A DNA stretch of 64,000 nt, from positions 11,625 to 75,624 of the forward strand of contig CAYHNH010000001.1 of the NCBI GenBank assembly GCA_964358005.1. Direction: 5' to 3'. Below, one piece after another: positions 12,523-58,870 of the stretch. The stretch is from an uncultured Candidatus Saccharibacteria bacterium (lineage in GTDB: Bacteria; Patescibacteriota; Minisyncoccia; Phycocordibacterales; PALSA-1337). The position numbers and the translations under genes were made by a program. Below the pieces are notes generated by a model. That model was not told where the DNA came from, ran no database searches, and was given only the letters and a program-made list of their open reading frames with translations. Position 1 is the first letter of the stretch; each line of letters begins with the position of its first letter.

Positions 12523-15500
12523 TCACGAAAGACCCTTGAGACCGAGTGTGTCGCCCCATTCAATCGCCGAAAGATTGGTCGTAGCTTTTATTTTATCCTC
12601 GTTTTTTTCAATCAAAGCTTTGAGGTCATGGGTCGCTACGAGTACAGCCCTGTCGCCTACCGACAAACCCTTCTCTTTGCGCATATCCTGTATCTTGCGC
12701 AGAAGCTCGCGCAGTTCGCCTTCTTCCTTGAGCTCGGGCGTGAGATTTAGATCGAGAACGGCTTCCTTTTCCTGAGATGCAGCCAAGACAACACTTTTTA
12801 CATTCACTTCATCCTTGATCAGCTCAACCATGTCATGACTCAAGTTGCTGAACTTCGCATCCCTGACCGACAATGAAGCAAGCGGCTGCCTGACATTTAT
12901 CTTGGCCGACATGCGGGCCTCCAGACCTAATGAACAGAATTGTCTGACCAACTCCATATCACTTAATATTTTCTCGTTGACAACACCTGCAACAGGCCAG
13001 CTCTCTAGATGGACACTCTCTAGATGTCCCGCCATTTTTTTGTACAGATCCTCAGCGAAGAACGGTGTAAACGGAGCCATGAGCTTTGCCAAAGTTGTCA
13101 GGACTTCGACCGATGTCAGCAAAGCAAACTGTTTGTCCAAACCCTCGGTTTTGAGACGTTCCCTTGAACGCCTTACATACCACTGTGACAAATCAGCAAC
13201 ATAATCCCGGATTGCTCTAGTTGGTTCAAGCAAAACATATCTATCCAGAGACTCGGTGATCGTATGTACCAATTCATTTGTACGACTCATAATCCACAGA
13301 TCAAGCACATTTTTAGTTTTTTCCTCTGTGAAGCACTCCGTCTTTCCTGAATTCATTTCGTAAAATGAGTAAATATTAGAGACAAGATTGAAGACCTTCT
13401 TCACGATCTCATCCACAGTCTTCTCGTCGAAGTTCTTCGACTCGCCGGCTTCGTTCACCGAATACATCCAGAATCGAAGGGCGTCAGCGCCATACTTATC
13501 CATCATAGCCCACGGATCAATCACGTTGCCGATCGACTTGGACATCTTTTTACCTTCCGCATCACGCATATGTCCGAGGCAGACAACATTCCTAAAGGCC
13601 TTGCCCTTGCCCAAGAGCGCACCTATGGCATGGAGCGTATAGAACCAGCCGCGAGTCTGGTCAATGGCCTCCGATATGAAGTCAGCCGGATATGCCAGTT
13701 TCCTGCCACCAAAAAACTTCTTCGGGAAGGCGAAGGGGTAATGATCCTGAGCGAAAGGCATGGCCCCCGAATCGAACCAGACGTCCATGACCTCCTTAAC
13801 ACGCGACATCTCACCCCCGCAGGAGCAGGCTAGTTTCACCTCGTCTATGAACGGCCGATGCAGATCAAGCTCATACTCGGAGTTGTGTGGCAGGATACTA
13901 AGGTCTAGCTTGCGAGCCTCGGCTTTATGTATGTAGTTGCTAGCTTCGTAGTCGTTAGTCTGTCTGCGGTCGAGTCCTTGCGCGACTGCCATGAGCATCA
14001 TCGAAGGAGAGCCGTGCGATACTATCAATATCTTCTTGCCCTCATATCTCTTTTCCAGGTCGTACAAGAAATCTCCGACGCGCTTTTTCACCTCCACATA
14101 AGTTTCCACGCCATCAGCGTTCGGCTCAAAACGATTGCTGGCCTCTCCCTGCGGGAAGACTTTCAGGAATGAATCCAGATCCTTACCGCTCCAACTGCCG
14201 AATCCTAGCTCGCGCAGGCGGTCATCGAAGGCGACATCTGCTTCCTCCAAACCTATCGTCTTCCGAACGATCTCTGTTGTCTCTCTGGTGCGAACGAACG
14301 GCGAAGACACTATCATGTCGAAACCGACGCTCTTGAGAGACGTAGCTGTCTCGAGAGCGTGAGCCTTGCCCTTTTCAGTCAGATGGAATGGGGCGACAGG
14401 ATCGCTCGTGACTATTTTACCCACGTTATTCCCGGCTTCCCCATGTCGCATTATGTAGTATGTGTTTTTCGGCTTTGCCGAAACATCGGCCACTGATCCT
14501 ACGGTCTTCCGCTCGCCACATTTGTCGCACACCCAGACCGGCAGCGGCGTGCCCCAATAGCGCTCGCGTGAGATCGCCCAGTCCTTGACCTCGCGGAGCC
14601 ATTCGCCAAAACGGCCCTCTTTTATGTGAGCCGGCTCCCAGTTGATGCTCTCATTCTCCCTGACAAGCTCCTTACGTAGGCTCGACATCCTGATGTACCA
14701 GCTGTCGCGCGCAAAATATATGAGCGGCGTCTTACAGCGCCAGCAGAATGGATATGTATGTTCGTATTTCTCCTTGTGAAAAAGCAGCCCGCGACCAGCG
14801 AGATCCTTTATAATCGCCACGTCCGTCGCTTCATCTTTGACAAAAGCTCCAGCTAGGAATCCCGCCTCTTTCTTGAAGGTCCCATCATCATTGACCAGAT
14901 GATATTTCGGCAGTCCTACCTTCGTGCCTAGCTCAAAGTCATCCTGGCCGTACATGACCGCGGTATGCACTATGCCCGTACCGTCGGTCGTCGTGACGAA
15001 GTCAGCCGCATAGACTTTGTAGGCATTCTTAAGCTTCTCCTTTTCAGTACCTGATATGTTGTCGCGCAGGAATGGGTAAAGCGGCTCGTATTGTAATCCG
15101 ACGAGATCGCTACCTTTGAGGTCTCCGTGAACGATTTCTACAGTGTGGCCTTTCAGAACTGTATCCATCCTGGATTTCGCCATGATCAACAATTCTGGAA
15201 TACCATCGATTCGGACAGCGCAATATTCAACGTTCTCTCCAATTGCCAATCCGACGTTTCCAGGTAGCGTCCAAGGAGTCGTCGTCCAGGCCAAGATGTA
15301 GGCTGAGTCACGAGTCACGTAATCTTTTCCGAATTTTTGGCCGGCCTTCAGATGAAACTTCACTGTCACCGCCAGATCCTTCACGTCCGCATAGCCCTGC
15401 GCGAGCTCGTGCGACGACAAACCTGTGCCACAGCGCGGACACCAGGGCACGACTTTGTAGTCCTTATACAAAAGGCCCTTGTCATCGACGGTCTTCACTA

Positions 15501-15975
15501 TATTCCAAAGCGACTCTATGTATTCCGGCTTATAGGTAATGTAGGGATCCTTGAGGTCCACCCAATATCCAATGCGCTTAGTGAAATCCTCCCACTCGCG
15601 CACGTAAGTCCAGACGCTCTCCTTACATTTCTCATTGAAAGCCGCGATGCCATAGCTCTCGATGTCTTTTTTTGACTTAAAGCCGAGCTGTTTTTCTACT
15701 TGGAGCTCGACTGGCAGACCGTGAGTATCCCAGCCGCCTTTCCTACGGACATTGAAACCGCGCATGGTCTTGTAGCGTGGGATGGCATCCTTGAAAGCTC
15801 GGGCCTCGAGATGATGTATGCCCGGTCGGCCGTTGGCCGTCGGCGGGCCCTCATAAAAAACGAATTCTTTTTTTGAATCCTTATTCTTCTCCAGGGATTT
15901 CTCGAAAATTCCTTTGTCATTCCAGAATTTCAGAATCCGCTCTTCCCTGAGCGCGTGTTGGCTCTTTTCTGCCAT
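12523..15975 (-). CDS. ileS: isoleucyl-tRNA synthetase (type 2) with an embedded histidine-phosphatase (PGAM-family) domain
   Basis: 1150 aa; HIGH-type PGIHH, GWDTHGLPVE, CP1 editing TTTPWTLPGN, KMSKSIGN. Residues ~505-690 carry PGAM signatures IMRHGEAGNN, SSPFVRTRETT, LIVSHGSP between the CxxC knuckle (VWVCDKCGE) and DLHRPFIDEV. Confidence 0.93.
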   Translation of the reverse strand: MAEKSQHALREERILKFWNDKGIFEKSLEKNKDSKKEFVFYEGPPTANGRPGIHHLEARAFKDAIPRYKTMRGFNVRRKGGWDTHGLPVELQVEKQLGFKSKKDIESYGIAAFNEKCKESVWTYVREWEDFTKRIGYWVDLKDPYITYKPEYIESLWNIVKTVDDKGLLYKDYKVVPWCPRCGTGLSSHELAQGYADVKDLAVTVKFHLKAGQKFGKDYVTRDSAYILAWTTTPWTLPGNVGLAIGENVEYCAVRIDGIPELLIMAKSRMDTVLKGHTVEIVHGDLKGSDLVGLQYEPLYPFLRDNISGTEKEKLKNAYKVYAADFVTTTDGTGIVHTAVMYGQDDFELGTKVGLPKYHLVNDDGTFKKEAGFLAGAFVKDEATDVAIIKDLAGRGLLFHKEKYEHTYPFCWRCKTPLIYFARDSWYIRMSSLRKELVRENESINWEPAHIKEGRFGEWLREVKDWAISRERYWGTPLPVWVCDKCGERKTVGSVADVSAKPKNTYYIMRHGEAGNNVGKIVTSDPVAPFHLTEKGKAHALETATSLKSVGFDMIVSSPFVRTRETTEIVRKTIGLEEADVAFDDRLRELGFGSWSGKDLDSFLKVFPQGEASNRFEPNADGVETYVEVKKRVGDFLYDLEKRYEGKKILIVSHGSPSMMLMAVAQGLDRRQTNDYEASNYIHKAEARKLDLSILPHNSEYELDLHRPFIDEVKLACSCGGEMSRVKEVMDVWFDSGAMPFAQDHYPFAFPKKFFGGRKLAYPADFISEAIDQTRGWFYTLHAIGALLGKGKAFRNVVCLGHMRDAEGKKMSKSIGNVIDPWAMMDKYGADALRFWMYSVNEAGESKNFDEKTVDEIVKKVFNLVSNIYSFYEMNSGKTECFTEEKTKNVLDLWIMSRTNELVHTITESLDRYVLLEPTRAIRDYVADLSQWYVRRSRERLKTEGLDKQFALLTSVEVLTTLAKLMAPFTPFFAEDLYKKMAGHLESVHLESWPVAGVVNEKILSDMELVRQFCSLGLEARMSAKINVRQPLASLSVRDAKFSNLSHDMVELIKDEVNVKSVVLAASQEKEAVLDLNLTPELKEEGELRELLRKIQDMRKEKGLSVGDRAVLVATHDLKALIEKNEDKIKATTNLSAIEWGDTLGLKGLS

Positions 15976-28320: not shown

Positions 28321-29193
28321 TTACACTCCCGCGCACAAATCTGCAAGATTTTCAAAAAGAGCTAGGACTGTCATAGGTCCGATACCGCCTGGAACTGGCG
28401 ATATCGCGGAAGCTATGCCCTTCACTGCCTCGAAATCGACGTCGCCGACTAGCTTGGACTCGGCAATCTCGTTCTCAAACTTCTCTCCCGACACGCTGTT
28501 GATCCCGACATCGATAACCACAGCCCCAGGCTTAACGTGGGAAACGCCTATTAAGCCGGGTTTTCCGGCCGCCACTATCAAGACGTCGGCCTTTTTGGTT
28601 TCTGACACGAGATCGGGCGTCTTTGAGTGGCAGATCGTCACGAAAGCACTCTCGTTCAGGCAAAAAGCCGCCAGAGGCTTGCCGACGAGCATCGAACGCC
28701 CCACGACCACGACGTGCTTGCCATATAGCTCAATCTTGTAGTGAGCGAGCAGTTGCTTCACCCCGCGGGTGGTCGCTGGCAGTACGGCATCTACGCGACC
28801 TTCCAACCAACGCTTCACATTGAATGAAGTCAGTCCGTCTACATCTTTCCTGGGTGATATCGCTTCTATGACTGCGTCTTGATCGAGAGCCGTCGGCAAA
28901 GGCAGCTGAACGATGATGCCCTTGATCGATTCATCCTCGTTGCATTCCCAGACTCGGGCGATGAGCTCCTGCTGGGCTATGTTCTCGGCAAGCTTTATGA
29001 GCTGGGTCTTTACCCCCACCTTTTCCCCGAATGACATCTTGGCCTTGATATACGCTGAAGAATCGGGTCTATCGCCCACTTGGATGATGGCAAGAACAGG
29101 CGGCTTTACGAGTCCCTGGATCTTTTTCTGGAGTTCTGGGATCCTCGAATCGCGCACGGATCTACCATCTAAGATGATTGCTGGCATGTTCAT
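28321..29193 (-). CDS. folD: bifunctional methylenetetrahydrofolate dehydrogenase/cyclohydrolase
   Basis: 290 aa; FolD motifs (AIIQVGDRPDSSAYIKAK, GIIVQLPLP, VVVVGRSMLVGKP). Confidence 0.93.
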   Translation of the reverse strand: MNMPAIILDGRSVRDSRIPELQKKIQGLVKPPVLAIIQVGDRPDSSAYIKAKMSFGEKVGVKTQLIKLAENIAQQELIARVWECNEDESIKGIIVQLPLPTALDQDAVIEAISPRKDVDGLTSFNVKRWLEGRVDAVLPATTRGVKQLLAHYKIELYGKHVVVVGRSMLVGKPLAAFCLNESAFVTICHSKTPDLVSETKKADVLIVAAGKPGLIGVSHVKPGAVVIDVGINSVSGEKFENEIAESKLVGDVDFEAVKGIASAISPVPGGIGPMTVLALFENLADLCAGV

Positions 29194-29250
29194 AAGATAT
29201 CACATTTTCCAGTTAAGTTGAGTGCGTTGATGCCGCCGTTTGTAAGCGTG

Positions 29251-29538
29251 GGAGGGTGTCACCCTTCCTTCAGCTCAACTTTTTTTATTTACAATAATAG
29301 AGAAATATTGTGCTAAGTGCTTCTACACCTTTCCTGCCGCACAAACAAGCGAGGAAGCTGCGTCAGTAATTGACTACCAGATAGAAATTTTTCTGCATGA
29401 AACCATGCTTATCGTCTATTGTATATAAAAATAGTAGGCGTACCCGAAGGATAACTCCCCCCCCTCACGCCTTCCGAGCGGTGTTATGCGCCGCGCCGCG
29501 CGACACCACGGTACGACACGCCCTTAATATAATAGAAA
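29251..29538. repeat. ~280-bp non-coding repeat element, copy 1 (inverted partner at 57599-57870)
   Basis: Reverse complement aligns with 57599-57870 at ~85-90% identity (shared blocks ttactgacgcagcttcctcgct, gaagcacttagcacaatatttctctattattgtaaat, ccttcgggtacgcctactatttttatatacaata); no ORF. Confidence 0.75.
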
Positions 29539-29548
29539 ACGCTGAAAA

Positions 29549-30463
29549 CTAAGCTTTCCACCTGGCAAAGATGCCGGCGGGGAGCAGTCGAACCTCCTCG
29601 CCAGCTCCATCAACCTTACCAGCCACGCTAGCCTTACCAGAAAGCCCCTCCTCTATCGCCAGCTCCCCTATCTCTATCTCGCCACCAAACTTCTCTTTGA
29701 GGGGAAACAGGTTATTTTCATACGCCAGCGATGAGTAGCCCGCTGAATAGCCGTTTATGAGAAAGAATAACGGCTCAGGCTTGAGTAACTTCTTGCAATC
29801 CTCGATGAGCGGCAGGAAATCATTCTCGATCTTCCAAAGCTCATTATCAGCGCCGTGCCCGAAGGCTGGCGGATCCATCATGATAGCGTCATACTGGCGG
29901 CCGCGGCGTATCTCGCGTTCGACGAAGAGCCTGGCATCCTCGATAATCCAGCGTATCGGCTTGTCAGAGAGACCTGAAAGCTCCGCATTCTGCCTAGCCC
30001 AGGTCACAGCCGCCTTAGAGCTGTCTATGTGCACAACCTTCGCTCCCACCTGCGCGCAGGCAAGAGAGGCACCGCCTGTATAGCCAAAAAGGTTCAGGAC
30101 CTCGGCGTCCTTTTTGCCCTGTATGAGCGAGCGCATCCAATCCCAATTCGGCAACTGTTCCGGAAAAAGCCCCGTATGCTTGAATGCCGTAGGCTTTATG
30201 ATGAACTTGAGGCCACCGAACTCTATAGGCCAATCAGCCGGCAGCTTATTCCTGAAAGACCACTCGGCCTTTTCGCTATCGCGAGTGAAATATGCATCAG
30301 CCTTTTCCCACTCCGCCTTAGGCAGTCTCCTAGCCCACAGCGCCTGCGGGTCAGGCCGGCTCAATAGGACCTTGCCGAAGCGTTCGAGCTTCTCTCCTTC
30401 GCCGGAATCTATGAGCTCATAGCCTTCGGACGGCGCGGTGATGAGGATGTTAGATGTTTTCAT
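29549..30463 (-). CDS. class I SAM-dependent rRNA methyltransferase (RlmI/YccW-like)
   Basis: SAM-binding LNLFGYTGGASLACA, catalytic IMMDPPAFG. Confidence 0.85.
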   Translation of the reverse strand: MKTSNILITAPSEGYELIDSGEGEKLERFGKVLLSRPDPQALWARRLPKAEWEKADAYFTRDSEKAEWSFRNKLPADWPIEFGGLKFIIKPTAFKHTGLFPEQLPNWDWMRSLIQGKKDAEVLNLFGYTGGASLACAQVGAKVVHIDSSKAAVTWARQNAELSGLSDKPIRWIIEDARLFVEREIRRGRQYDAIMMDPPAFGHGADNELWKIENDFLPLIEDCKKLLKPEPLFFLINGYSAGYSSLAYENNLFPLKEKFGGEIEIGELAIEEGLSGKASVAGKVDGAGEEVRLLPAGIFARWKA

Positions 30464-43052: not shown

Positions 43053-43075
43053 CCGGATACAATATCACAAAATCA

Positions 43076-43104
43076 TTGCCGAGCCACGATTTTTGCCTTA
43101 TGAT
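43076..43104 (+). promoter_or_regulatory. sigma70-like promoter for tRNA-Ser
   Basis: TTGCCG-17 nt-TATGAT, ending 8 nt before the tRNA 5-prime end. Confidence 0.5.
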
Positions 43105-43112
43105 GGCCGGAC

Positions 43113-43202
43113 GGATGGGTGGCTGAGTGGTTTAAGGCAACAGTCTTGAAAACTGTCGTGCTCGCAAGGGCACCGTGAGTTCGAATCTCACCCCATCCGC
43201 CA
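43113..43202 (+). tRNA. tRNA-Ser (anticodon TGA), CCA encoded
   Basis: Acceptor GGATGGG/CCCATCC, anticodon arm ACAGT-CTTGAAA-ACTGT, long variable arm, T-arm GTGAG-TTCGAAT-CTCAC, discriminator G + CCA. Confidence 0.92.
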
Positions 43203-43261
43203 TATAAAACAATGCCCCATCTTGCTGGGGCTGGTGGGACTAAGAAAACAAGTCCTGCGAT

Positions 43262-43525
43262 TCAGAGGAGTGTGCACATCACGCACCCTTCTGGAAATGG
43301 GCAGTGGCTGCAATGCCTCCGCGGCTGTCCTGTGAACTTGCGTCTCCGTTTGCTTGGTGAAGCATCATGAACGGTCACATCTCGCTCGGAATGCTTGGTC
43401 ATACGAGGTTTGTCAGTAATAGATGGCATAAGGACCACCCTTCCCGACGCGACGGCACGATTAGCTTCCTCGGTGTCCCTCTTTTGCATCATCTCTTTTA
43501 CTTCTTTTTGCGTGTACATCGGCAT
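43262..43525 (-). CDS. hypothetical basic protein with C-terminal Cys cluster
   Basis: 87-aa ORF divergent from the LuxR-type regulator gene. Confidence 0.35.
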   Translation of the reverse strand: MPMYTQKEVKEMMQKRDTEEANRAVASGRVVLMPSITDKPRMTKHSERDVTVHDASPSKRRRKFTGQPRRHCSHCPFPEGCVMCTLL

Positions 43526-43600
43526 ACCTGCCTCCTTTTTAGTTGATGGTTTCCTGACACAAAACTAACAAACAACTGTAAACGTGTCCAGGTTTTCAGT

Positions 43601-43753
43601 CACCACCCTTTACTATTGTAAAGGGTGGTTCGAAGGGAGGGGTTGTCCGGCAGGCGGGAGGCAGGAAGGTGTCGGTCCACGCACCTATAACATCTTTGTT
43701 ATAGGCTTTTTACGTAAAACGACGAGATTTCCCTATAACATATATGTTATAGG
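43601..43753. promoter_or_regulatory. three perfect palindromes in the divergent intergenic region upstream of the tandem-LuxR regulator
   Basis: 43601-43628 ACCACCCTTTAC-tatt-GTAAAGGGTGGT; 43684-43705 CCTATAAC-atcttt-GTTATAGG; 43732-43753 CCTATAAC-atatat-GTTATAGG (centres 48 bp apart). A TTGACA-16-TAGACT promoter follows at 43813-43840. Confidence 0.5.
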
Positions 43754-43868
43754 TCAACGGAACTAACCCCTCTATCTGGCAAGCCGCCTGATTCGGAACT
43801 CTCGAACCCCGATTGACACTTTGCCACGCATAAGTAGACTCCCCCTTCAGAGAAATCCCCCTCATTTT

Positions 43869-44387
43869 ATGAATAGTCCTCACTCATATCGTCCTTTGAC
43901 AGACATGGAAATCAAAGTTCTCGGGTTGTTGGCAAGGGGCTACCTGATAAAGGAAGTCGCCGGAATCTTCAAGAGAAGCAAGAATAGCGTCAATGACACT
44001 ATGGCTCGAACACGCAAAAAATTGTTCGTTCCATCGTATATCAATAGCCAGACCATCCTACCGCTGCTCGCACTGCATACTGATCGGCTTGAGCGCATTC
44101 CCGAGATACCTGCGGAGCTCACTCACCGTCGGATCTGCATACTTCGCCATGTCACCTCCGGCTTGACGCAGGCTCAAACGGCAAAAGCGCTGGGGCTGTC
44201 CCGCGTCACCATCGAAAGACACATGGCAAAGATACGCTCAATCGTCGCTCGGGAACTGTGCCTCGATAATGTAAACAACGTCGAGCTCACTCACTACGCT
44301 ATAGCTCGTGGAATCACGCCTATCAAAAAGTCATATGTCGGGCTCTTCTCCAACAAGATTCCCTTTCCCTGCGCCGCCTCCGGGTAG
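43869..44387 (+). CDS. transcriptional regulator with two tandem LuxR/GerE-type HTH domains
   Basis: Two HTH regions: LTDMEIKVLGLLARGYLIKEVAGIFKRSKNSVNDTMARTRKKL and ICILRHVTSGLTQAQTAKALGLSRVTIERHMAKIRSIV; start set downstream of the predicted promoter. Confidence 0.7.
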   Translation: MNSPHSYRPLTDMEIKVLGLLARGYLIKEVAGIFKRSKNSVNDTMARTRKKLFVPSYINSQTILPLLALHTDRLERIPEIPAELTHRRICILRHVTSGLTQAQTAKALGLSRVTIERHMAKIRSIVARELCLDNVNNVELTHYAIARGITPIKKSYVGLFSNKIPFPCAASG

Positions 44388-44433
44388 GCGCTTTTTTGTT
44401 CACAGCAGAGAGCAGGCCTCGAAGCGCCATATC

Positions 44434-44508
44434 CGCTTCGCTCATATATCAACTGCGCTCGGACGCAACGCCAGCAAGCTGTCATGCATCCTCGCTTGTT
44501 GCTATAAT
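44434..44508 (+). promoter_or_regulatory. conserved ~75-bp promoter module, copy A (copy B at 58796-58870), extended -10 TGcTATAAT
   Basis: cgcttcgctcatatatcaactgcgctcggacgcaacgccagcaagctgtcatgcatcctcgcttgttgctataat; ~87% identical to the pilB upstream sequence. TATAAT ends 6 nt before the ATG at 44515 (leaderless or very short leader). Confidence 0.55.
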
Positions 44509-44979: not shown

Positions 44980-45089
44980 GCACTCAAAACAACGCTAACC
45001 GACGTACCTCAATCAAAAAATATCGATAAGCACTAACACTCTTGCGTTTGTGTCATAGACTGATAATATGACTACAGAAAGGAGCCCCC

Positions 45090-45347
45090 GTGAAAATAAC
45101 ATCGTCTTTGCTGAATTCATTACCTCGTTTGTGGGATTGGCTGGATCGCTGGCTATGCCGCTCATTGCCTGGATCCGTCCGTTTTCTTTGGGCAAGACTA
45201 TGGGTCAGGCAGGATGAATTTCACCCTTCCCTCGACCTCCATGCAGAATATGCCGCCCACTTGGAGCCGGAAAAACTCGCCTCCTACCAGCACAATCTGA
45301 CGCGACGCAGAAACCTTGCCCACGAGCGTGACTTAGCGACAATCTAA
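45090..45347 (+). CDS. hypothetical small protein (GTG start), Trp/Arg/Leu-rich
   Basis: GGAG RBS 5 nt upstream of GTG; rho-independent terminator follows. Confidence 0.45.
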   Translation: MKITSSLLNSLPRLWDWLDRWLCRSLPGSVRFLWARLWVRQDEFHPSLDLHAEYAAHLEPEKLASYQHNLTRRRNLAHERDLATI

Positions 45348-45353
45348 AGCCCG

Positions 45354-45387
45354 ACCGCCATAGTTCAGGTCCTCCGGCGGTTTTTTT
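45354..45387 (+). terminator. rho-independent terminator
   Basis: ACCGCC-(16-nt loop)-GGCGGT followed by TTTTTTT. Confidence 0.6.
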
Positions 45388-45422
45388 GTATGTTTCAGTC
45401 ATCTCTATATCTCCCGCAAATA

Positions 45423-45452
45423 GAAAATGCCGGAAATAAATCCGGCATTTTC
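45423..45452. terminator. bidirectional hairpin terminator next to the tRNA-Arg(GCG) 3-prime end
   Basis: AAAATGCCGGA-aataaa-TCCGGCATTTT: palindromic stem flanked by A- and T-runs. Confidence 0.5.
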
Positions 45453-45460
45453 TGTTTGGG

Positions 45461-45532
45461 TGCCCCCGAGAGGAATCGAACCTCTATTGCAGGATCCGCA
45501 ATCCTGCGTCCTATCCGTTGAACGACGAGGGC
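45461..45532 (-). tRNA. tRNA-Arg (anticodon GCG as read)
   Basis: Acceptor GCCCTCG/CGGGGGC (one G-U), anticodon arm CAGGA-TTGCGGA-TCCTG, T-arm AGAGG-TTCGATT-CCTCT; U33 and purine-37 in place. Confidence 0.75.
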
Positions 45533-45537
45533 AGAAA

Positions 45538-45801
45538 CTATCCGAGCTTCGCTAGAGAAGCCGCCGCACGAGACTTGAGCCTGGCGGCCGCGTTGTCCTT
45601 GATGAAACCGGTCTTTGCGGCCTTGTCGAGATCCTGATAGAGATCAGGTAAGAGCTTCGCCGCCCCAGCCTTGTCTTTGGCTGTTACCAGCTTGCGAAAC
45701 GTATTGAGAGTGCCATCGACCTCCTTCTTGCGGCGAATATTGAAAACGCGCTTGCGCTTGGAAGCTCGGAGGGCTTTCTTGGCTGAAGATGTTATCGGCA
45801 T
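45538..45801 (-). CDS. rpsT: 30S ribosomal protein S20
   Basis: 87 aa; S20-like basic helical protein (MPITSSAKKALRASKRKRVFNIRRK). Confidence 0.93.
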   Translation of the reverse strand: MPITSSAKKALRASKRKRVFNIRRKKEVDGTLNTFRKLVTAKDKAGAAKLLPDLYQDLDKAAKTGFIKDNAAARLKSRAAASLAKLG

Positions 45802-45902
45802 GAATGTACGGAGAAAATTATCACATCATGCGTGAAAAGGCAACTCGGTTAGGGATTGACAGCCCATTTTCTGCGAGTACTCTGTAAACAGAATTACCTA
45901 TT

Positions 45903-47857: not shown

Positions 47858-49120
47858 ATGGGCCATACTAATGCCATGCTCGACGAAACGCTCATAAGGA
47901 TAAAACGATTAATACCGGCCTCCATTTTCAGCTTTTTTCAGCCAGCATATCACTGGACTCTGTCATTTCTGGCTGCTCTCGTATACGGCTTCCCTTCCAA
48001 AAAGATAAATGTCATTGCTGTCACCGGCACCAAGGGCAAAAGTTCCACTACAGAGATATTGAACGCTATATTAGAGAAGGCAGGCCATAGGACCGCCCTT
48101 TCGAACACAATCCGTTTCAAGATTGGCGATGAGTCGCACAGGAATCTGTTCAAGATGAGCATGCCGGGGAGGTTTTCGATGCAGAAGCTCATCAGGCAAG
48201 CGGTCAACGACCACTGTGAATACTTTATATGCGAGATGACTTCTCAGGGCTCTCTCCTCCACCGCCATAAATTCATTGACATAAATATTTTAATATTCAC
48301 TAATCTATCGCCAGAGCACATAGAGGCACATGGATCATACGAAAATTATGCCAAAGCCAAACTAGATATCGCAAAAAGCCTAGAAAATTCGCGCAAAAGA
48401 GAGACGACCATCATCGTGAATGCCGATGACAAGGAGAGCGCACGATTTTTATCCTTTAATGTCAATAAAAAAATACCGTACAGTCTGAAGGACGCCTCCC
48501 GGCCTCTATACGAAACAAAACTGCCCGGCATATTCAACCAGTACAACATCCTGGCCGCCGCGACTTGTGCAAAGAACGAGGGCGTCCCAGACAATGTCAT
48601 CGCCGAAGCTATCACAGAGTTCCGGCACATCCCCGGCCGCGTCGAGAAGATCGAAGCAGGACAGGACTTCACGGTGATAGTCGACTATGCCCACACCGCC
48701 GACTCTCTGGAAAAGCTTTACAAAATATTCGATGGGAAGAGGAGGGTCGCCGTCCTCGGCGGCACAGGCGGCGGGCGCGACACTTCAAAGCGCGCGATCA
48801 TGGGCGCCCTGGCCGACAAATACTGCGACCTGATCATCCTCACGAACGAAGACCCCTACGATGAGGATCCGCAGAAGATAATAGACGATGTAGCGAAAGG
48901 CATTATCACAAAAAAGCCTCTCATCATCATGGATCGCCGACTGGCCATACGCGAAGCCATCCGTCAGGCCAAGCCAGGCGATGTCGTCCTCATCACTGGA
49001 AAAGGCACCGACCCGTTTATCATGGGGCCGCTAGGCACAAAGGTCCCCTGGAGCGACGCCGACATCGCGCGCGAGGAGCTTATTGCGGCGAGGAATATAT
49101 CCTATTCAACGTCTCGATAG
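47858..49120 (+). CDS. murE: Mur ligase, MurE-like, with a very short N-terminal region
   Basis: P-loop VIAVTGTKGKSSTT at residue ~57; central and C-terminal domains align with MurE (IVDYAHTADSLEKL, VLGGTGGGRDTSKR, LTNEDPYDEDP, GDVVLITGKG); only ~50 aa precede the P-loop. Confidence 0.7.
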   Translation: MGHTNAMLDETLIRIKRLIPASIFSFFQPAYHWTLSFLAALVYGFPSKKINVIAVTGTKGKSSTTEILNAILEKAGHRTALSNTIRFKIGDESHRNLFKMSMPGRFSMQKLIRQAVNDHCEYFICEMTSQGSLLHRHKFIDINILIFTNLSPEHIEAHGSYENYAKAKLDIAKSLENSRKRETTIIVNADDKESARFLSFNVNKKIPYSLKDASRPLYETKLPGIFNQYNILAAATCAKNEGVPDNVIAEAITEFRHIPGRVEKIEAGQDFTVIVDYAHTADSLEKLYKIFDGKRRVAVLGGTGGGRDTSKRAIMGALADKYCDLIILTNEDPYDEDPQKIIDDVAKGIITKKPLIIMDRRLAIREAIRQAKPGDVVLITGKGTDPFIMGPLGTKVPWSDADIAREELIAARNISYSTSR

Positions 49121-55126: not shown

Positions 55127-57580
55127 CTATGATTTTAACTCCCCCCAGTCTTTGCCGATAGAGCCCTTTGCTTCGAGCACGACGCCGTGGGTCAGCTTCG
55201 GGTCGATGATCGACCTCATGATCTTTTCGATGTCCTTGATAACCTTGTCCTCCTTGCCTTTCTTTATCTCATAGAGGAGCTCGTCATGGACCTGGAGCAA
55301 GGGATAGACATCTTTTTCCAGCTTTTCCTTGGCAATGTATTCCTGGACTCGCACCATCGCCAGCTTGATGACATCGGCTTCTGTTCCCTGTATCGGCGCG
55401 TTGATGGCCATCCTCTCCGCAGATGCACGAATAAAAGGTATCTTGGACTTTATCCCGTCGAAATAGCGGCGGCGACCGAAGAACGTCTCCGTGTAACCTC
55501 TGCGTGCCGTCTCCGCTTTGACTTCATCCAGATATTTAGCCAGCGTCGAGAATGTCTCGAAGTAATCATTGTAGAACCTCTGGGCCTCGTCACGGCTGGT
55601 GCACAGGTTTTGTTTCAAGGCCAGAACTCCCATGCCGTAGAGGATGCCGAAGTTGATGACCTTGGCTCGTCGGCGCATCTCATGATCGACTTTATCCGGA
55701 GCCACCTTGAAGACGGCAGCTGCGACAGCCCGGTGGACATCTTCTCCTCTCTTAAATATGTCTATCAGCTTCTCGTCGCCGGAAAGGAACGCGGCGATAC
55801 GCAGTTCGACTTGAGAATAGTCGAGACCAGCTAGGACGAAGCCGTCATCAGAGATAAACGCCTTGCGTATGGCGCGTCCGAGCTCGGTGCGCATCGGGAT
55901 ATTTTGCAAGCCGGGATTCTTCGTGGCCATGCGGCCGGTGACTGCGCCATTCTGGATGAATGTCGTGTGCAGGCGGTCATTCTTGTCCAAAAGCGGTGGG
56001 ATAGCGTCTATGTAGGTTCCGAGCAACTTCTGCAGTTCGCGATATTCGAATATAAGGGGAATTATCTCGTGCGAACCCCGCATCTTTTCTAGCTCCGATT
56101 CTCGGGTCGACCGCGCGCCTCCGGCAGTTTTCTTCATGTTCTTAGCGCCGAGGCCGAGCTTGTCGAACAATATACCGCCTAGCTGTTTCGGCGAATTTAT
56201 GTTGAACTCGATACCCGCCAGGGTGTATATCTTCTTCTCCAGTATAGCCACCGTCGCGTGATAATCTTTGGACAATTTTGCAAGGAGCAACCGGTCGATC
56301 TTGATCCCACGCTCGCTCATCTTATGGAGTATCGGTATGAGCGGCAGCTCTATCTCATCATATATTTTTTTGACCTGGCGCTTCTCGAGCTCCTCATAAA
56401 TAAGTTTTTTTGCTGTCTCATAATCTTCCGTGTTACCGAAATTGAGCGCATCTTCGAGCTTCGGGTCAGTCAGGTTGGAATTGACGAGCGACAGCGCGAC
56501 TAGCGTCTTCTCCAGATCTGACTGATCTATGCCGTTTCCGAAAAGAGACCCGCCTTCTGGGGCAATCTTCTTCGGGTCGGCCTTAGAAACCGGCTTTTCC
56601 TTCTCGACTAGCGGCTTGCCTTCGAGGACTTGCTTCAACCTCTGCGGCAAAGTCCGGAATTCGAGCTCATTCCAGAGCGCCGTGATCTTGTGTATGTCCA
56701 CCCCTTCCTTGAATGTCTTCTCCGGCAGTTGGAACTCGACGGGCACATCTTTCCTGATCGTCGCGAGCATCTTGCTGAACTCTGCCTCTTCCTTGTTCTC
56801 TTTGAGTAGAGCGACTATGCGCGCCTTTATTCCGGCTTTCTCAAATCTATCTTCGTGGCCGGCTTCGAGCTCTTTGTACATATCCTCGATCGTGCCGAAT
56901 GTCTGGATGAGGGTCGTCGCAGTCTTGTCGCCTATGCCCTTCACTCCGGGAATATTGTCAGATGGATCGCCGCAGAGCCCCTTGTAGTCAGGGATCAGTT
57001 CTGGGCCAAAACCATAGCGGGTATTCACGGCCTTCTCGTCATACATGATCGTGTCGCTGATGCCTTTCTTCAGGGTGTAGACCTTCACGTGCCCGTCATG
57101 GATGAGTTGCATCGTATCCATATCACCTGATGCGATGATGATATCCATGTCCGTGCGGCCCTTCAGTTGCTCGACGATCGTCCCGAGAACGTCGTCTGCC
57201 TCGAAGCCCTGCTTGTCGTATATGGGTATGTTAAAAGCAGAGAATACATCGCGCGAACGAGACATCTGGGCGATCAGAGCATCTTCGGCCTTCTTGCGTT
57301 GGGCTTTGTATTCCTTGAACACATCATGCCTGTGCGTCGGGCCTTTCACGTCATAACAGGCTACGACATAGTCGGGCTTGAGGTCGGCCACTATCTTGAG
57401 GAGCATGGTGGAGACGCCATAGAGCGCTCCTGTCGGCTCGCCTTTCGCAGTCGAGAAATCAGGCAGGGCGTGATAGGCGCGATGAAGAATAGCGTGGGCG
57501 TCGAGCAGTATTAGGCGTTTAAGCGGCTCTTTCATGAGGTTATTCGTGGGGTCCTTCATGCGACCCTTCACGTGGTCCAT
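55127..57580 (-). CDS. polA: DNA polymerase I (5-prime nuclease + polymerase domains)
   Basis: 817 aa; N-terminal 5-3 exonuclease domain, polymerase motif A (DYSQVELRIAAFLSGDE), motif B (RRRAKVINFGILYG), motif C (LQVHDELLYE). Confidence 0.95.
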   Translation of the reverse strand: MDHVKGRMKDPTNNLMKEPLKRLILLDAHAILHRAYHALPDFSTAKGEPTGALYGVSTMLLKIVADLKPDYVVACYDVKGPTHRHDVFKEYKAQRKKAEDALIAQMSRSRDVFSAFNIPIYDKQGFEADDVLGTIVEQLKGRTDMDIIIASGDMDTMQLIHDGHVKVYTLKKGISDTIMYDEKAVNTRYGFGPELIPDYKGLCGDPSDNIPGVKGIGDKTATTLIQTFGTIEDMYKELEAGHEDRFEKAGIKARIVALLKENKEEAEFSKMLATIRKDVPVEFQLPEKTFKEGVDIHKITALWNELEFRTLPQRLKQVLEGKPLVEKEKPVSKADPKKIAPEGGSLFGNGIDQSDLEKTLVALSLVNSNLTDPKLEDALNFGNTEDYETAKKLIYEELEKRQVKKIYDEIELPLIPILHKMSERGIKIDRLLLAKLSKDYHATVAILEKKIYTLAGIEFNINSPKQLGGILFDKLGLGAKNMKKTAGGARSTRESELEKMRGSHEIIPLIFEYRELQKLLGTYIDAIPPLLDKNDRLHTTFIQNGAVTGRMATKNPGLQNIPMRTELGRAIRKAFISDDGFVLAGLDYSQVELRIAAFLSGDEKLIDIFKRGEDVHRAVAAAVFKVAPDKVDHEMRRRAKVINFGILYGMGVLALKQNLCTSRDEAQRFYNDYFETFSTLAKYLDEVKAETARRGYTETFFGRRRYFDGIKSKIPFIRASAERMAINAPIQGTEADVIKLAMVRVQEYIAKEKLEKDVYPLLQVHDELLYEIKKGKEDKVIKDIEKIMRSIIDPKLTHGVVLEAKGSIGKDWGELKS

Positions 57581-57598
57581 TGTATATCATGCAACTTT

Positions 57599-57870
57599 TT
57601 ATTTCAGCGCCCTCTATTAAGGGGATGACATATAACGCCGCTCGGGGGGCGTGGGGGGGTTATCCTTCGGGTACGCCTACTATTTTTATATACAATAAAC
57701 GATAAATGTGATGCCATGCAGAAAAATTCTACCTCTAACCTGATTTACTGACGCAGCTTCCTCGCTCGTTTGTGCAGTAGGAAAGGTATAGAAGCACTTA
57801 GCACAATATTTCTCTATTATTGTAAATGAAAAAAGTTGGGCTGAAGGAAGTGTGACGCCTTCCTCCCTCC
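57599..57870. repeat. ~280-bp non-coding repeat element, copy 2 (inverted relative to copy 1 at 29251-29538)
   Basis: Reverse-complement match to copy 1 (~85-90% identity); copy 1 has an extra ~35-bp GC-rich insert near one end. Contains CC-UUCG-GG tetraloop-like hairpin on the plus strand. Confidence 0.75.
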
Positions 57871-57934
57871 CCCCTCTAATTTCAAGCCTCAACTGCGTGC
57901 GTGCGACAACATCGGGGCAACAACATCTGCGCTC

Positions 57935-58411
57935 TCAATTTAATTGTATTGTGTACACCCCCTCTCTGATCTCGGATCTCAACCAGCCGCCACCAGAGAA
58001 ATCCGCCTGCCCGAGCCCCACATTTTCTGGCCACTCGATCATCACCAGATTATGCGGATCAGCCACGACATCCTCGAACCTCAAAGCCTCCAGATCTTCA
58101 CGCTTCTCTAGCCTATACGCATCTATATGGACCAGTCTCTTGAAAATATCGTCCCTAGTCTCATAGATCTTCATGATGACAAAAGTCGGACTAGTGACGA
58201 TCTCCTCGATCCCGAGCTCCTTCGCCACCGCCTTCACAAAGGCCGTCTTGCCTGCCCCCAGGTGGCCGCTTAGGCCCGCCACAAAAGCTCCGCCTGTTTC
58301 GCTGGCAGTCACCCGCCCTTCTGACACCTGCGCCAGCCATTCAGCGGCTATGCTGGCCGTATCTTCAAGCGAACGCGACTCCATGTATTTCATGAGCGAA
58401 TCATACATCAT
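57935..58411 (-). CDS. tsaE: tRNA threonylcarbamoyladenosine biosynthesis protein TsaE (YjeE ATPase)
   Basis: Walker A GHLGAGKTAFVK and TsaE pattern (IVTSPTFVIMKIYE); start set at MMYDSLMKYMES; the longer ORF-track N-terminus lies in a different gene region. Confidence 0.85.
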   Translation of the reverse strand: MMYDSLMKYMESRSLEDTASIAAEWLAQVSEGRVTASETGGAFVAGLSGHLGAGKTAFVKAVAKELGIEEIVTSPTFVIMKIYETRDDIFKRLVHIDAYRLEKREDLEALRFEDVVADPHNLVMIEWPENVGLGQADFSGGGWLRSEIREGVYTIQLN

Positions 58412-58431
58412 GGCCTTAAAAACAAAAAACC

Positions 58432-58458
58432 GCGGGGTCGAACCGCGGCAGTAACAGA
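58432..58458 (-). terminator. rho-independent terminator after the small lipoprotein gene
   Basis: Minus strand CCGCGG-ttcgacc-CCGCGG followed by TTTTTTGTTTTT. Confidence 0.55.
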
Positions 58459-58475
58459 TCCAAGCTCGGAGCAGA

Positions 58476-58733
58476 TCAGCGGCGTGAGTGGCGCGCTGGC
58501 TGATGATGCGGGCTCCCGCCGTGATGGCCACGGTAGCCATTGCCCCCGAAGTAGGTAGGCCACCAGTAGTAGCCGCTGTAACCCGACCAGTATCCCGAGT
58601 AAGACGGCGCGTAATAACCTTGATACACCGGCACCGGAATGATGACGCGGTATCCGCCGCCCGGGTAGACCACACAGCCACCGAGCACGAACATTGCAAT
58701 GAGCAAGCAAACTCGAACAGCATTAGTTTTCAT
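58476..58733 (-). CDS. small Gly/Tyr/Trp-rich putative lipoprotein (85 aa)
   Basis: Signal peptide + lipobox (MKTNAVRVCLLIAMFVLGGC) then YSGYWSGYSGYYWWPTYFGGNGYRGHHGG; candidate TTGCGC-17-TATAAC promoter upstream; terminator downstream. Confidence 0.5.
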   Translation of the reverse strand: MKTNAVRVCLLIAMFVLGGCVVYPGGGYRVIIPVPVYQGYYAPSYSGYWSGYSGYYWWPTYFGGNGYRGHHGGSPHHQPARHSRR

Positions 58734-58795
58734 AGAGGGAATTCAATCTTGTTATACACCCGCCCTATATATGGCGCAAGTGCCTCTGGTATATT

Positions 58796-58870
58796 CGCTT
58801 CGCTCATATATCAACTGCGCTCGGACGTTGCGCCAGCAAGCTGTTGCACGTCCTCGCTTGTTGCTATAAT
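58796..58870 (+). promoter_or_regulatory. conserved ~75-bp promoter module, copy B (upstream of pilB), extended -10 TGcTATAAT
   Basis: cgcttcgctcatatatcaactgcgctcggacgttgcgccagcaagctgttgcacgtcctcgcttgttgctataat; -10 ends 13 nt before the pilB ATG. Confidence 0.55.

Follow-up and report, generated by a model that had tools for sequence, protein, structure and literature searches.

Two intergenic spacers of the window, the 64,000-nt stretch of DNA analysed here, contain inverted copies of a non-coding repeat. Judging from its sequence features, we give about an even chance to the view that this repeat is an old, decayed MITE-like (non-autonomous) element residing in a Taylorbacteria-like CPR genome. 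The copies are members of a small insertion family, non-coding, AT-rich and imperfectly palindromic, that entered at least three unrelated gene junctions and did so in either orientation. The original spread may have been driven by a transposase acting in trans and recognising the ~50-nt arms, and any present-day effect would be a by-product of hairpin-forming arms on read-through transcripts rather than the activity of a dedicated RNA gene. As to the host, the closest match of the PolA protein (79%) is annotated as Candidatus Taylorbacteria, the other matches belong to Minisyncoccia/Paceibacterota, and the exact FolD protein is found on Hainich groundwater contigs (well H41, 0.1 um fraction). 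The source is therefore a member of the CPR.

An inverted repeat pair in two gene spacers

The initial annotation had described an inverted pair about 28 kb apart, and this pair is real: positions 29251-29461 and 57653-57863 align in reverse complement. An inverted-repeat search of the window returned repeat arms of 119 nt with 92% identity (29251-29369/57745-57863) and of 76 nt with 89% identity (29386-29461/57653-57728), and blastn gave 86% identity over 241 nt. The three conserved blocks quoted in the annotation each occur exactly twice in the window with up to three mismatches, against a chance expectation of 0.00-0.01. For this reason, the match does not reduce to low-complexity A/T tracts, an outcome for which the annotation had allowed.

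The flanking genes had been called correctly, as the Pfam assignments of folD (28321-29193), the SAM methyltransferase (29549-30463), polA (55127-57580) and tsaE (57935-58723), all on the minus strand, indicate. Weaker homology widens the pair to about 29210-29548 and 57601-57945. If orientation A is defined as the plus strand of copy 1, which equals the minus strand of copy 2, the full segment of copy 1 (29210..29548, +) fills the methyltransferase-folD spacer and runs antisense to both neighbours. That of copy 2 (57601..57945, -) takes up the spacer from tsaE to polA and points the same way as both genes; its initial 13 nt overlap the last four codons of tsaE. The opposite orientations of the copies with respect to folD and polA, as noticed previously, are thereby borne out.

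The identity between the two copies is patchy, with runs of 22-39 identical bases beside patches that cannot be aligned. Gene conversion between the copies might have produced this pattern, and is proposed because the window also codes for RecA, RecO and RuvAB.

Architecture of the palindromic unit

Every copy is an imperfect palindrome with a unit of about 230-250 nt, whereas the long form represented by copies 1 and 2 measures about 340 bp. The unit that copy 1 has in common with the third copy described below (about 246 nt, a family-level extent set by the limits of homology with that copy) corresponds to 29236..29481 (+), and the unit of copy 2 to 57636..57874 (-). The left arm of copy 1 (29252..29301, +; profile match of 49.7 bits) is composed, in this order, of a G-run, GTCAC, CCTTCC, a T-run and ATTTACAATAATAG, and it is here that the hairpin and T-run of the initial annotation belong. 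The right arm (29412..29461, -; 51.2 bits) is the reverse complement of the left-arm consensus and contains CTATTGTATATAAAAATAGTAGGCGTACCCGAAGGATAAC followed by a C-run. Between them, the central region (29302..29411, +) consists of about 110 nt in which conserved blocks are broken by two divergent patches (29370-29385 and 29401-29409). The equivalent arms of copy 2 are located at 57813..57862 (left, -; 47.1 bits) and 57653..57702 (right, +; 52.4 bits).

The arms comprise ~50 nt with 33 of 50 positions identical (66%), and are longer and more degenerate than typical terminal inverted repeats (TIRs), with exact termini undefined. Their consensus displays a G-run, GTYAY, CCTTC, about 12 variable bases, a T-rich run and TACAATA, and in its 50-nt form reads GGGGNGTYAYCCTTC...ACTWTTTTTATWTACAATA. 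Local alignment of each arm with the reverse complement of its partner gave a score of 47 in copy 1 (shuffled sequences, 22 +/- 4 with a maximum of 37), 40 in copy 2 (20 +/- 4, maximum of 33) and 37 in the third copy, so that the similarity lies above all 300 shuffles in each of the three copies. The element also matches its own reverse complement in nhmmer searches (34 and 23 bits), and the arms of copy 2 constitute the strongest local inverted repeat of the whole window. The core has a GC content of 37%, against 52% for the window. A block of 35 nt is invariant in all three copies, although the third is only ~80% identical overall.

A third copy and the size of the family

The initial annotation had considered a local duplication as the alternative to a dispersed repeat. 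A search of a metagenome collection with a 20-mer invariant between the copies matched only two contigs, one of which (L005) corresponds to copy 2. The other (L004), a different contig of the same metagenome, contains at positions 1829-2054 a further copy that is about 80% identical. This brings the total to three, the additional one being at an unrelated locus. Copy 3 is inserted between a class-I methyltransferase gene and a glycosyltransferase-like gene, with orientation A co-directional with both. It has only the palindromic unit in common with copies 1 and 2, and its flanks are different. Copies are thus present in both orientations relative to the neighbouring genes.

Broader searches extended the family no further. 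A scan of contigs from one genome per species gave no further copy, only a random Streptomyces match; a 16-mer search of viral contigs returned random matches only; and no copy was found by blastn in plasmid and phage collections. Profiles of the element and of its arms, run over the window and about 140 kb of sequence from relatives, detected neither further copies nor solo arms. A weak profile match at 48421-48512 was discarded as an extra copy, as it falls inside a Mur ligase gene and is probably due to chance. Given the few copies across the collections searched, the family is small.

The homology between copies 1 and 2 exceeds the palindromic unit by 25-60 nt on either side, and takes in 13 nt that correspond to the last four codons of tsaE. 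The score of this outer-flank homology was reached by 0 of 500 shuffles on the left and by 2 of 500 on the right. By contrast with this similarity between copies, the outer left flank compared with the reverse-complemented outer right flank gives a chance-level score (reached by 42/500 and 367/500 shuffles). An outer TIR pair with a 'TA' duplication, which was considered for the 340-nt long form, was accordingly rejected. Because the homology overruns the unit and the flanks have no inverted relation to each other, the pair resembles a duplicate of the copy 2 locus, flanks included, or a longer subfamily. Clean transposition of a TIR-bounded unit, whether by cut-and-paste or copy-and-paste, would not lead to such an overrun, which speaks against the MITE-like reading.

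The same feature would suit a non-mobile segmental duplication, in which the palindrome-bearing tsaE-polA spacer and its flanks were copied once, inverted, into the methyltransferase-folD junction by replication template switching or illegitimate recombination, without transposition. Besides the homology beyond the unit on both sides, the native appearance of the tsaE codons concerned (IQIK* in the relative L021 and IQLN* in the window, at the same protein length), the lack of a clear target-site duplication, the outer flanks without TIR and the low copy number are in line with such an event. We nevertheless regard it as rather unlikely, since copy 3 at its unrelated locus has only the palindromic unit in common with the others, within other flanks. 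A single duplication leaves the origin of the unit at the tsaE-polA and glycosyltransferase junctions unaccounted for, junctions which in the relatives are compact or free of the element.

Empty sites in relatives and age of the insertions

A comparison with related contigs reveals the sites without the element. The distance from the methyltransferase stop codon to the folD start is 29 nt in L007, L008 and L009 (FolD identity of ~75%), against ~355 nt here. The tsaE and polA genes overlap by 4 nt in L020 and are separated by 63 nt in L021 and by 179 nt in a third relative, compared with 354 nt here. The relative L023 has no element upstream of its glycosyltransferase gene, and presents the same ATGCTAGCAT box. 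Since L007, L008 and L009 at the first window site and L020 and L021 at the second are devoid of the element, the two window copies are lineage-specific insertions. The 63-nt spacer of L021 was also considered as an empty-site version of the outer flanks of copy 2, and was dismissed because the two are no more alike than expected by chance.

In a sister species (FolD 92%, glycosyltransferase 83%; Logan runs SRR22216451 and SRR22216446), the folD and glycosyltransferase sites are both occupied by the element, which is seen at L006:1-25 and L024:1-30, respectively. The insertions at these sites consequently predate the split of the two species, and they are old and now fixed. In the orthologous copies the inner arm is about 80-90% conserved, the GC-rich outer parts are unalignable, and a 26-nt stretch that is invariant within the window's genome shows 5 changes. 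Replicate assemblies displayed no within-species insertion polymorphism, and the same-site copies of the sister species give no sign of recent mobility, a point that weighs against a MITE-like element.

The contigs L002 and L026 (ERR3858121; the species of the window), L006 (SRR22216451) and L024 (SRR22216446) all end inside the element. These four independent short-read contigs stop beside the A/T runs of the arms, as repeats break short-read assemblies. The element is a systematic assembly breakpoint in these CPR genomes.

Insertion between stop codons and promoter-like boxes

In all three cases, the element is placed downstream of one gene's stop codon and upstream of the extended -10 box of the next gene. 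For folD, the native extended -10-like box TGTGATATCTT (29194..29204, -) directly precedes the ATG at 29193 and is conserved in L006 and L008/L009. The corresponding box of polA, TGATATACAAT (57579..57589, -), has homologous counterparts in L020 (CTGATACAATG) and L021 (TGTACAAT), and that of the glycosyltransferase gene downstream of copy 3 reads TGCTAGCAT. In the three genes, this TGnTAnnnT box lies just 5' of the start codon and immediately downstream of the insert, and is kept in relatives. Insertion in the strip between stop codon and -10 box means that folD, polA and the glycosyltransferase gene kept their own promoters, and we infer that this placement explains the tolerance of insertions beside essential genes.

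Extended -10 boxes of the TGnTAnnnT type are found in this lineage 0-20 nt before the start codon and are conserved across relatives, which implies very short leaders or leaderless mRNAs. Further promoter-like boxes were located at L008:9985-9997, L020:9982-9992, L021:2077-2086 and about position 5980 of L023. Two start codons among the flanking genes deserve revision. An N-terminal alignment places the polA start probably at the second ATG (57559 rather than 57580). The ORF-based start of tsaE (57935-58723) is probably too far upstream: 262 aa are listed, and TsaE aligns with homologues of 145-166 aa, which puts the real start about 100 codons downstream.

Hallmarks of mobility

Prokaryotic MITEs are shorter than 500 bp, AT-rich and intergenic, have TIRs, yield stable stem-loop transcripts and are bounded by direct repeats that fade with age (PMC10969869). 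The element resembles them in several respects. Its length is below about 500 bp and it contains no transposase gene; its inverted-repeat arms score above all 300 shuffles in 3/3 copies; its core is AT-rich (37% vs 52% GC); and it is intergenic with a predicted stable stem-loop (z of -3.3 and -3.4). Copies are dispersed over three unrelated loci, although in low number, and vary in presence or absence between related genomes. The dispersed MITE-like repeat put forward in the initial annotation thus remains the best-supported reading, in view of the third copy, the empty sites and the palindromic, AT-rich, non-coding character of the unit. Two traits that define MITEs, target-site duplications and a partner transposase, lack proof.

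No convincing target-site duplication was found at any of the three copies. The heptamer ATACAAT flanks the copy 2 insert and has a single occurrence in L020, but was rejected as a duplication: its left occurrence consists of native tsaE codons and its right occurrence of the polA -10 box. The C-terminus of TsaE reads YTIQLN* here and YMIQIK* in L021, at the same length, and it is because the L021 protein ends in IQIK*, like the IQLN* of the window, that the left ATACAAT is considered native. At copy 1, TTTCCA comprises only 6 bp and is ambiguous, and there is nothing clear at copy 3. Regarding a source of transposase, none of the 47 window ORFs scanned (0/47) has a transposase or integrase domain. 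No partner insertion sequence (IS) sharing the arms was detected, there being no further arm matches in about 200 kb (window and relatives) and none in phage, plasmid and viral collections. Together with the number of copies, limited to three, and with arms of about 50 nt at 66% identity, compared with the 4-30 bp typical of MITEs, these results temper the MITE-like interpretation, as does the homology of copies 1 and 2 past the arms.

Coding capacity, transcription signals and RNA structure

The initial annotation had reported that neither copy has an ORF. Short ORFs of 51, 68 and 41 aa do exist, but none of the frames stays open throughout the three copies, so that the statement is loosely correct. 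The 68-aa ORF of copy 2 had no meaningful match in a phmmer search of 1.8 billion representative proteins. A small basic peptide (..VYKNSRRTRRITPP..) was considered, as its frame runs without a stop through the invariant block of every copy, and was rejected because it has no start codon in copy 3 and diverges completely after the C-run.

No promoter or terminator-like sites were called in the region of either copy, and neither a sigma-70-like site nor a TGnTAnnnT box was seen inside the element. The only scan hit, CTGAAA-17-TACAAT, was discarded as an internal promoter, since it combines the end of the element with the native -10 of polA. The hairpin followed by a T-run described previously is present in part: the GGGAGGG/CCCTTCC hairpin and the T-run are both there, but the T-run starts 11 nt past the stem, which does not agree with an intrinsic terminator, and the terminator scan of both regions was empty.

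These results bear on the proposal that the copies are structured non-coding RNA genes or cis-acting RNA modules, such as a long hairpin sRNA, a 6S-like rod, or an RNase III or terminator module, transcribed in orientation B (the minus strand of copy 1). The fold of copy 1 is more stable than those of shuffled sequences on both strands (z of -3.3 and -3.4), as any palindrome would be. In the consensus fold of orientation B, the arms pair with each other to form a stem with about 45 base pairs. Where the arms differ by transitions, the resulting G-U pairs favour orientation B over orientation A by 14 to 3, a count in which the copies are not independent; per copy the bias is 5:1 or 6:0 and not significant. 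The 35-nt block invariant in 3/3 copies and a C(UUCG)G tetraloop motif in orientation B are further points consistent with a structured RNA. Against these, Rfam 15 matched only tRNAs in the window at the gathering score and, at E<=10, two noise matches of 14-15 bits, with no family among them. The covariation term is about zero (+1.24 and -0.08 kcal/mol), with one compensatory pair per fold of 59-64 pairs, a comparison of three sequences with little variation. Relative to the flanking genes, orientation B reads sense in copy 1 but antisense in copies 2 and 3, which speaks against any co-transcribed role shared by the copies, and the element has no internal promoter or terminator-like site nor the TGnTAnnnT box used by the neighbouring genes. 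The 'invariant' block, moreover, carries 5 changes over 26 nt when compared with the sister species, and orthologous copies cannot be aligned in their outer arms. The RNA gene that had been offered as an option in the initial annotation therefore received no positive support from Rfam, covariation, transcription signals or orientation, and we consider this interpretation distinctly unlikely.

Some of the same features are compatible with selection. In this scenario, the element might be a CPR-specific, orientation-independent palindromic cassette selected at the stop-codon/promoter boundary of housekeeping genes, where it might serve as a transcriptional insulator, a processing hairpin or a small RNA. 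In the latter case, the divergent central patch (29370-29385 vs 57729-57744) might confer copy-specific specificity. The invariant 35-nt block, the persistence at orthologous sites of the sister species and the bias of G-U pairs towards one strand fit such a cassette without demonstrating it, and we hold its probability to be low.

Arrangement of the 28-kb block

Inverted copies of this length could, as suggested in the initial annotation, allow the 28-kb block between them (29.5-57.6 kb) to invert by recombination, in this case RecA-dependent. Inverted stretches of about 210 bp that are about 90% identical suffice for homologous recombination, and RecA, RecO, RuvA and RuvB are encoded in the window, so that gene conversion or rare inversion is possible; after an inversion, both downstream promoters would remain with their genes. 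The gene order, however, matches that of relatives. In a 70.9-kb contig of a relative, polA and folD keep the order seen here and share one strand. The order and strand of the tsaE-polA and methyltransferase-folD pairs are unchanged, and both adjacencies are ancestral. Contigs of two replicate assemblies span each junction in the configuration of the window, and no contig with a recombinant junction was found. An inversion would also leave about 28 kb, in which most genes are on the minus strand, running counter to the predominant direction of the genes. Recombinational inversion is therefore unsupported, and we judge it highly improbable that the pair plays this part.

Other features of the window

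An 80-bp direct repeat with 89% identity occurs at 44429-44508 and 58791-58870 and ends in GCTTGTTGCTATAAT, a perfect extended -10. Its copies lie 6-13 nt before the ATGs of two plus-strand genes, one of unknown function (44516) and one for a T2SSE/PilB-like ATPase (about 58884), and the repeat looks like a duplicated promoter module. An unrelated, second palindromic intergenic element is positioned between the stop codon of the T2SSE ATPase gene (60557) and the start of ruvB (60844), with 25-nt arms (60635-60659/60774-60798) that are 88% complementary and separated by 114 nt. Two near-identical palindromic sites, CCTATAACAT..ATGTTATAGG, 26 nt apart at 43683-43705 and 43732-43754, precede the gene of an HTH/LuxR-type regulator (43821-44387) and look like operators.

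The isoleucyl-tRNA synthetase (12523-15975, -; 1150 aa) contains a histidine-phosphatase domain (His_Phos_1, residues 507-680) inserted inside its class-I catalytic core; in a relative, this domain is a separate gene of 248 aa. Two non-coding stretches are long for a compact genome. The first (43053-43820, 768 nt) includes a tRNA-Ser and several inverted repeats, and the second (44980-45902, 923 nt) ends near a tRNA-Arg.

Discussion

A MITE-like element is the reading to which we return, and its closest functional analogues are the Correia and ERIC elements. Like the Correia elements of Neisseria (CREE/NEMIS), the element is a short palindrome located just upstream of genes in either orientation. 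When transcribed by read-through, Correia elements are able to fold into hairpins, and they are known to invert or to promote inversion (PMC10969869). They differ in having 26-bp TIRs, a TA duplication, more than 100 copies, demonstrated promoters, an IHF site and RNase III cleavage, traits not seen in the present element, and have no sequence similarity to it. The ERIC/IRU elements of enterobacteria are likewise imperfect palindromes in transcribed intergenic spacers, often just past a stop codon and in either orientation, and are conserved at orthologous sites of related species. ERIC, however, measures 127 bp and is found in tens to hundreds of copies in Gammaproteobacteria; the element here is twice as long and shows no sequence similarity to it. 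SPRITE, RUP and BOX of Streptococcus pneumoniae are small interspersed non-coding repeats with terminator-like hairpins (PMC3049150), but belong to another phylum and differ in sequence; in the present element, the hairpin and T-run lie 11 nt apart and fail the terminator scan.

A literature search found no description of MITE-like repeats in CPR/Patescibacteria. The genomes of these bacteria are tiny and tightly packed, and the element has separated tsaE from polA and the methyltransferase gene from folD, pairs that overlap or nearly touch in relatives. The survival of the downstream promoters shows where these genomes tolerate insertions, and the element is a practical reason for the breaks of short-read assemblies at these points. 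Should it prove functional, it would represent a regulatory module specific to the lineage; for now, it is a repeat of a common kind found in an unusual host.
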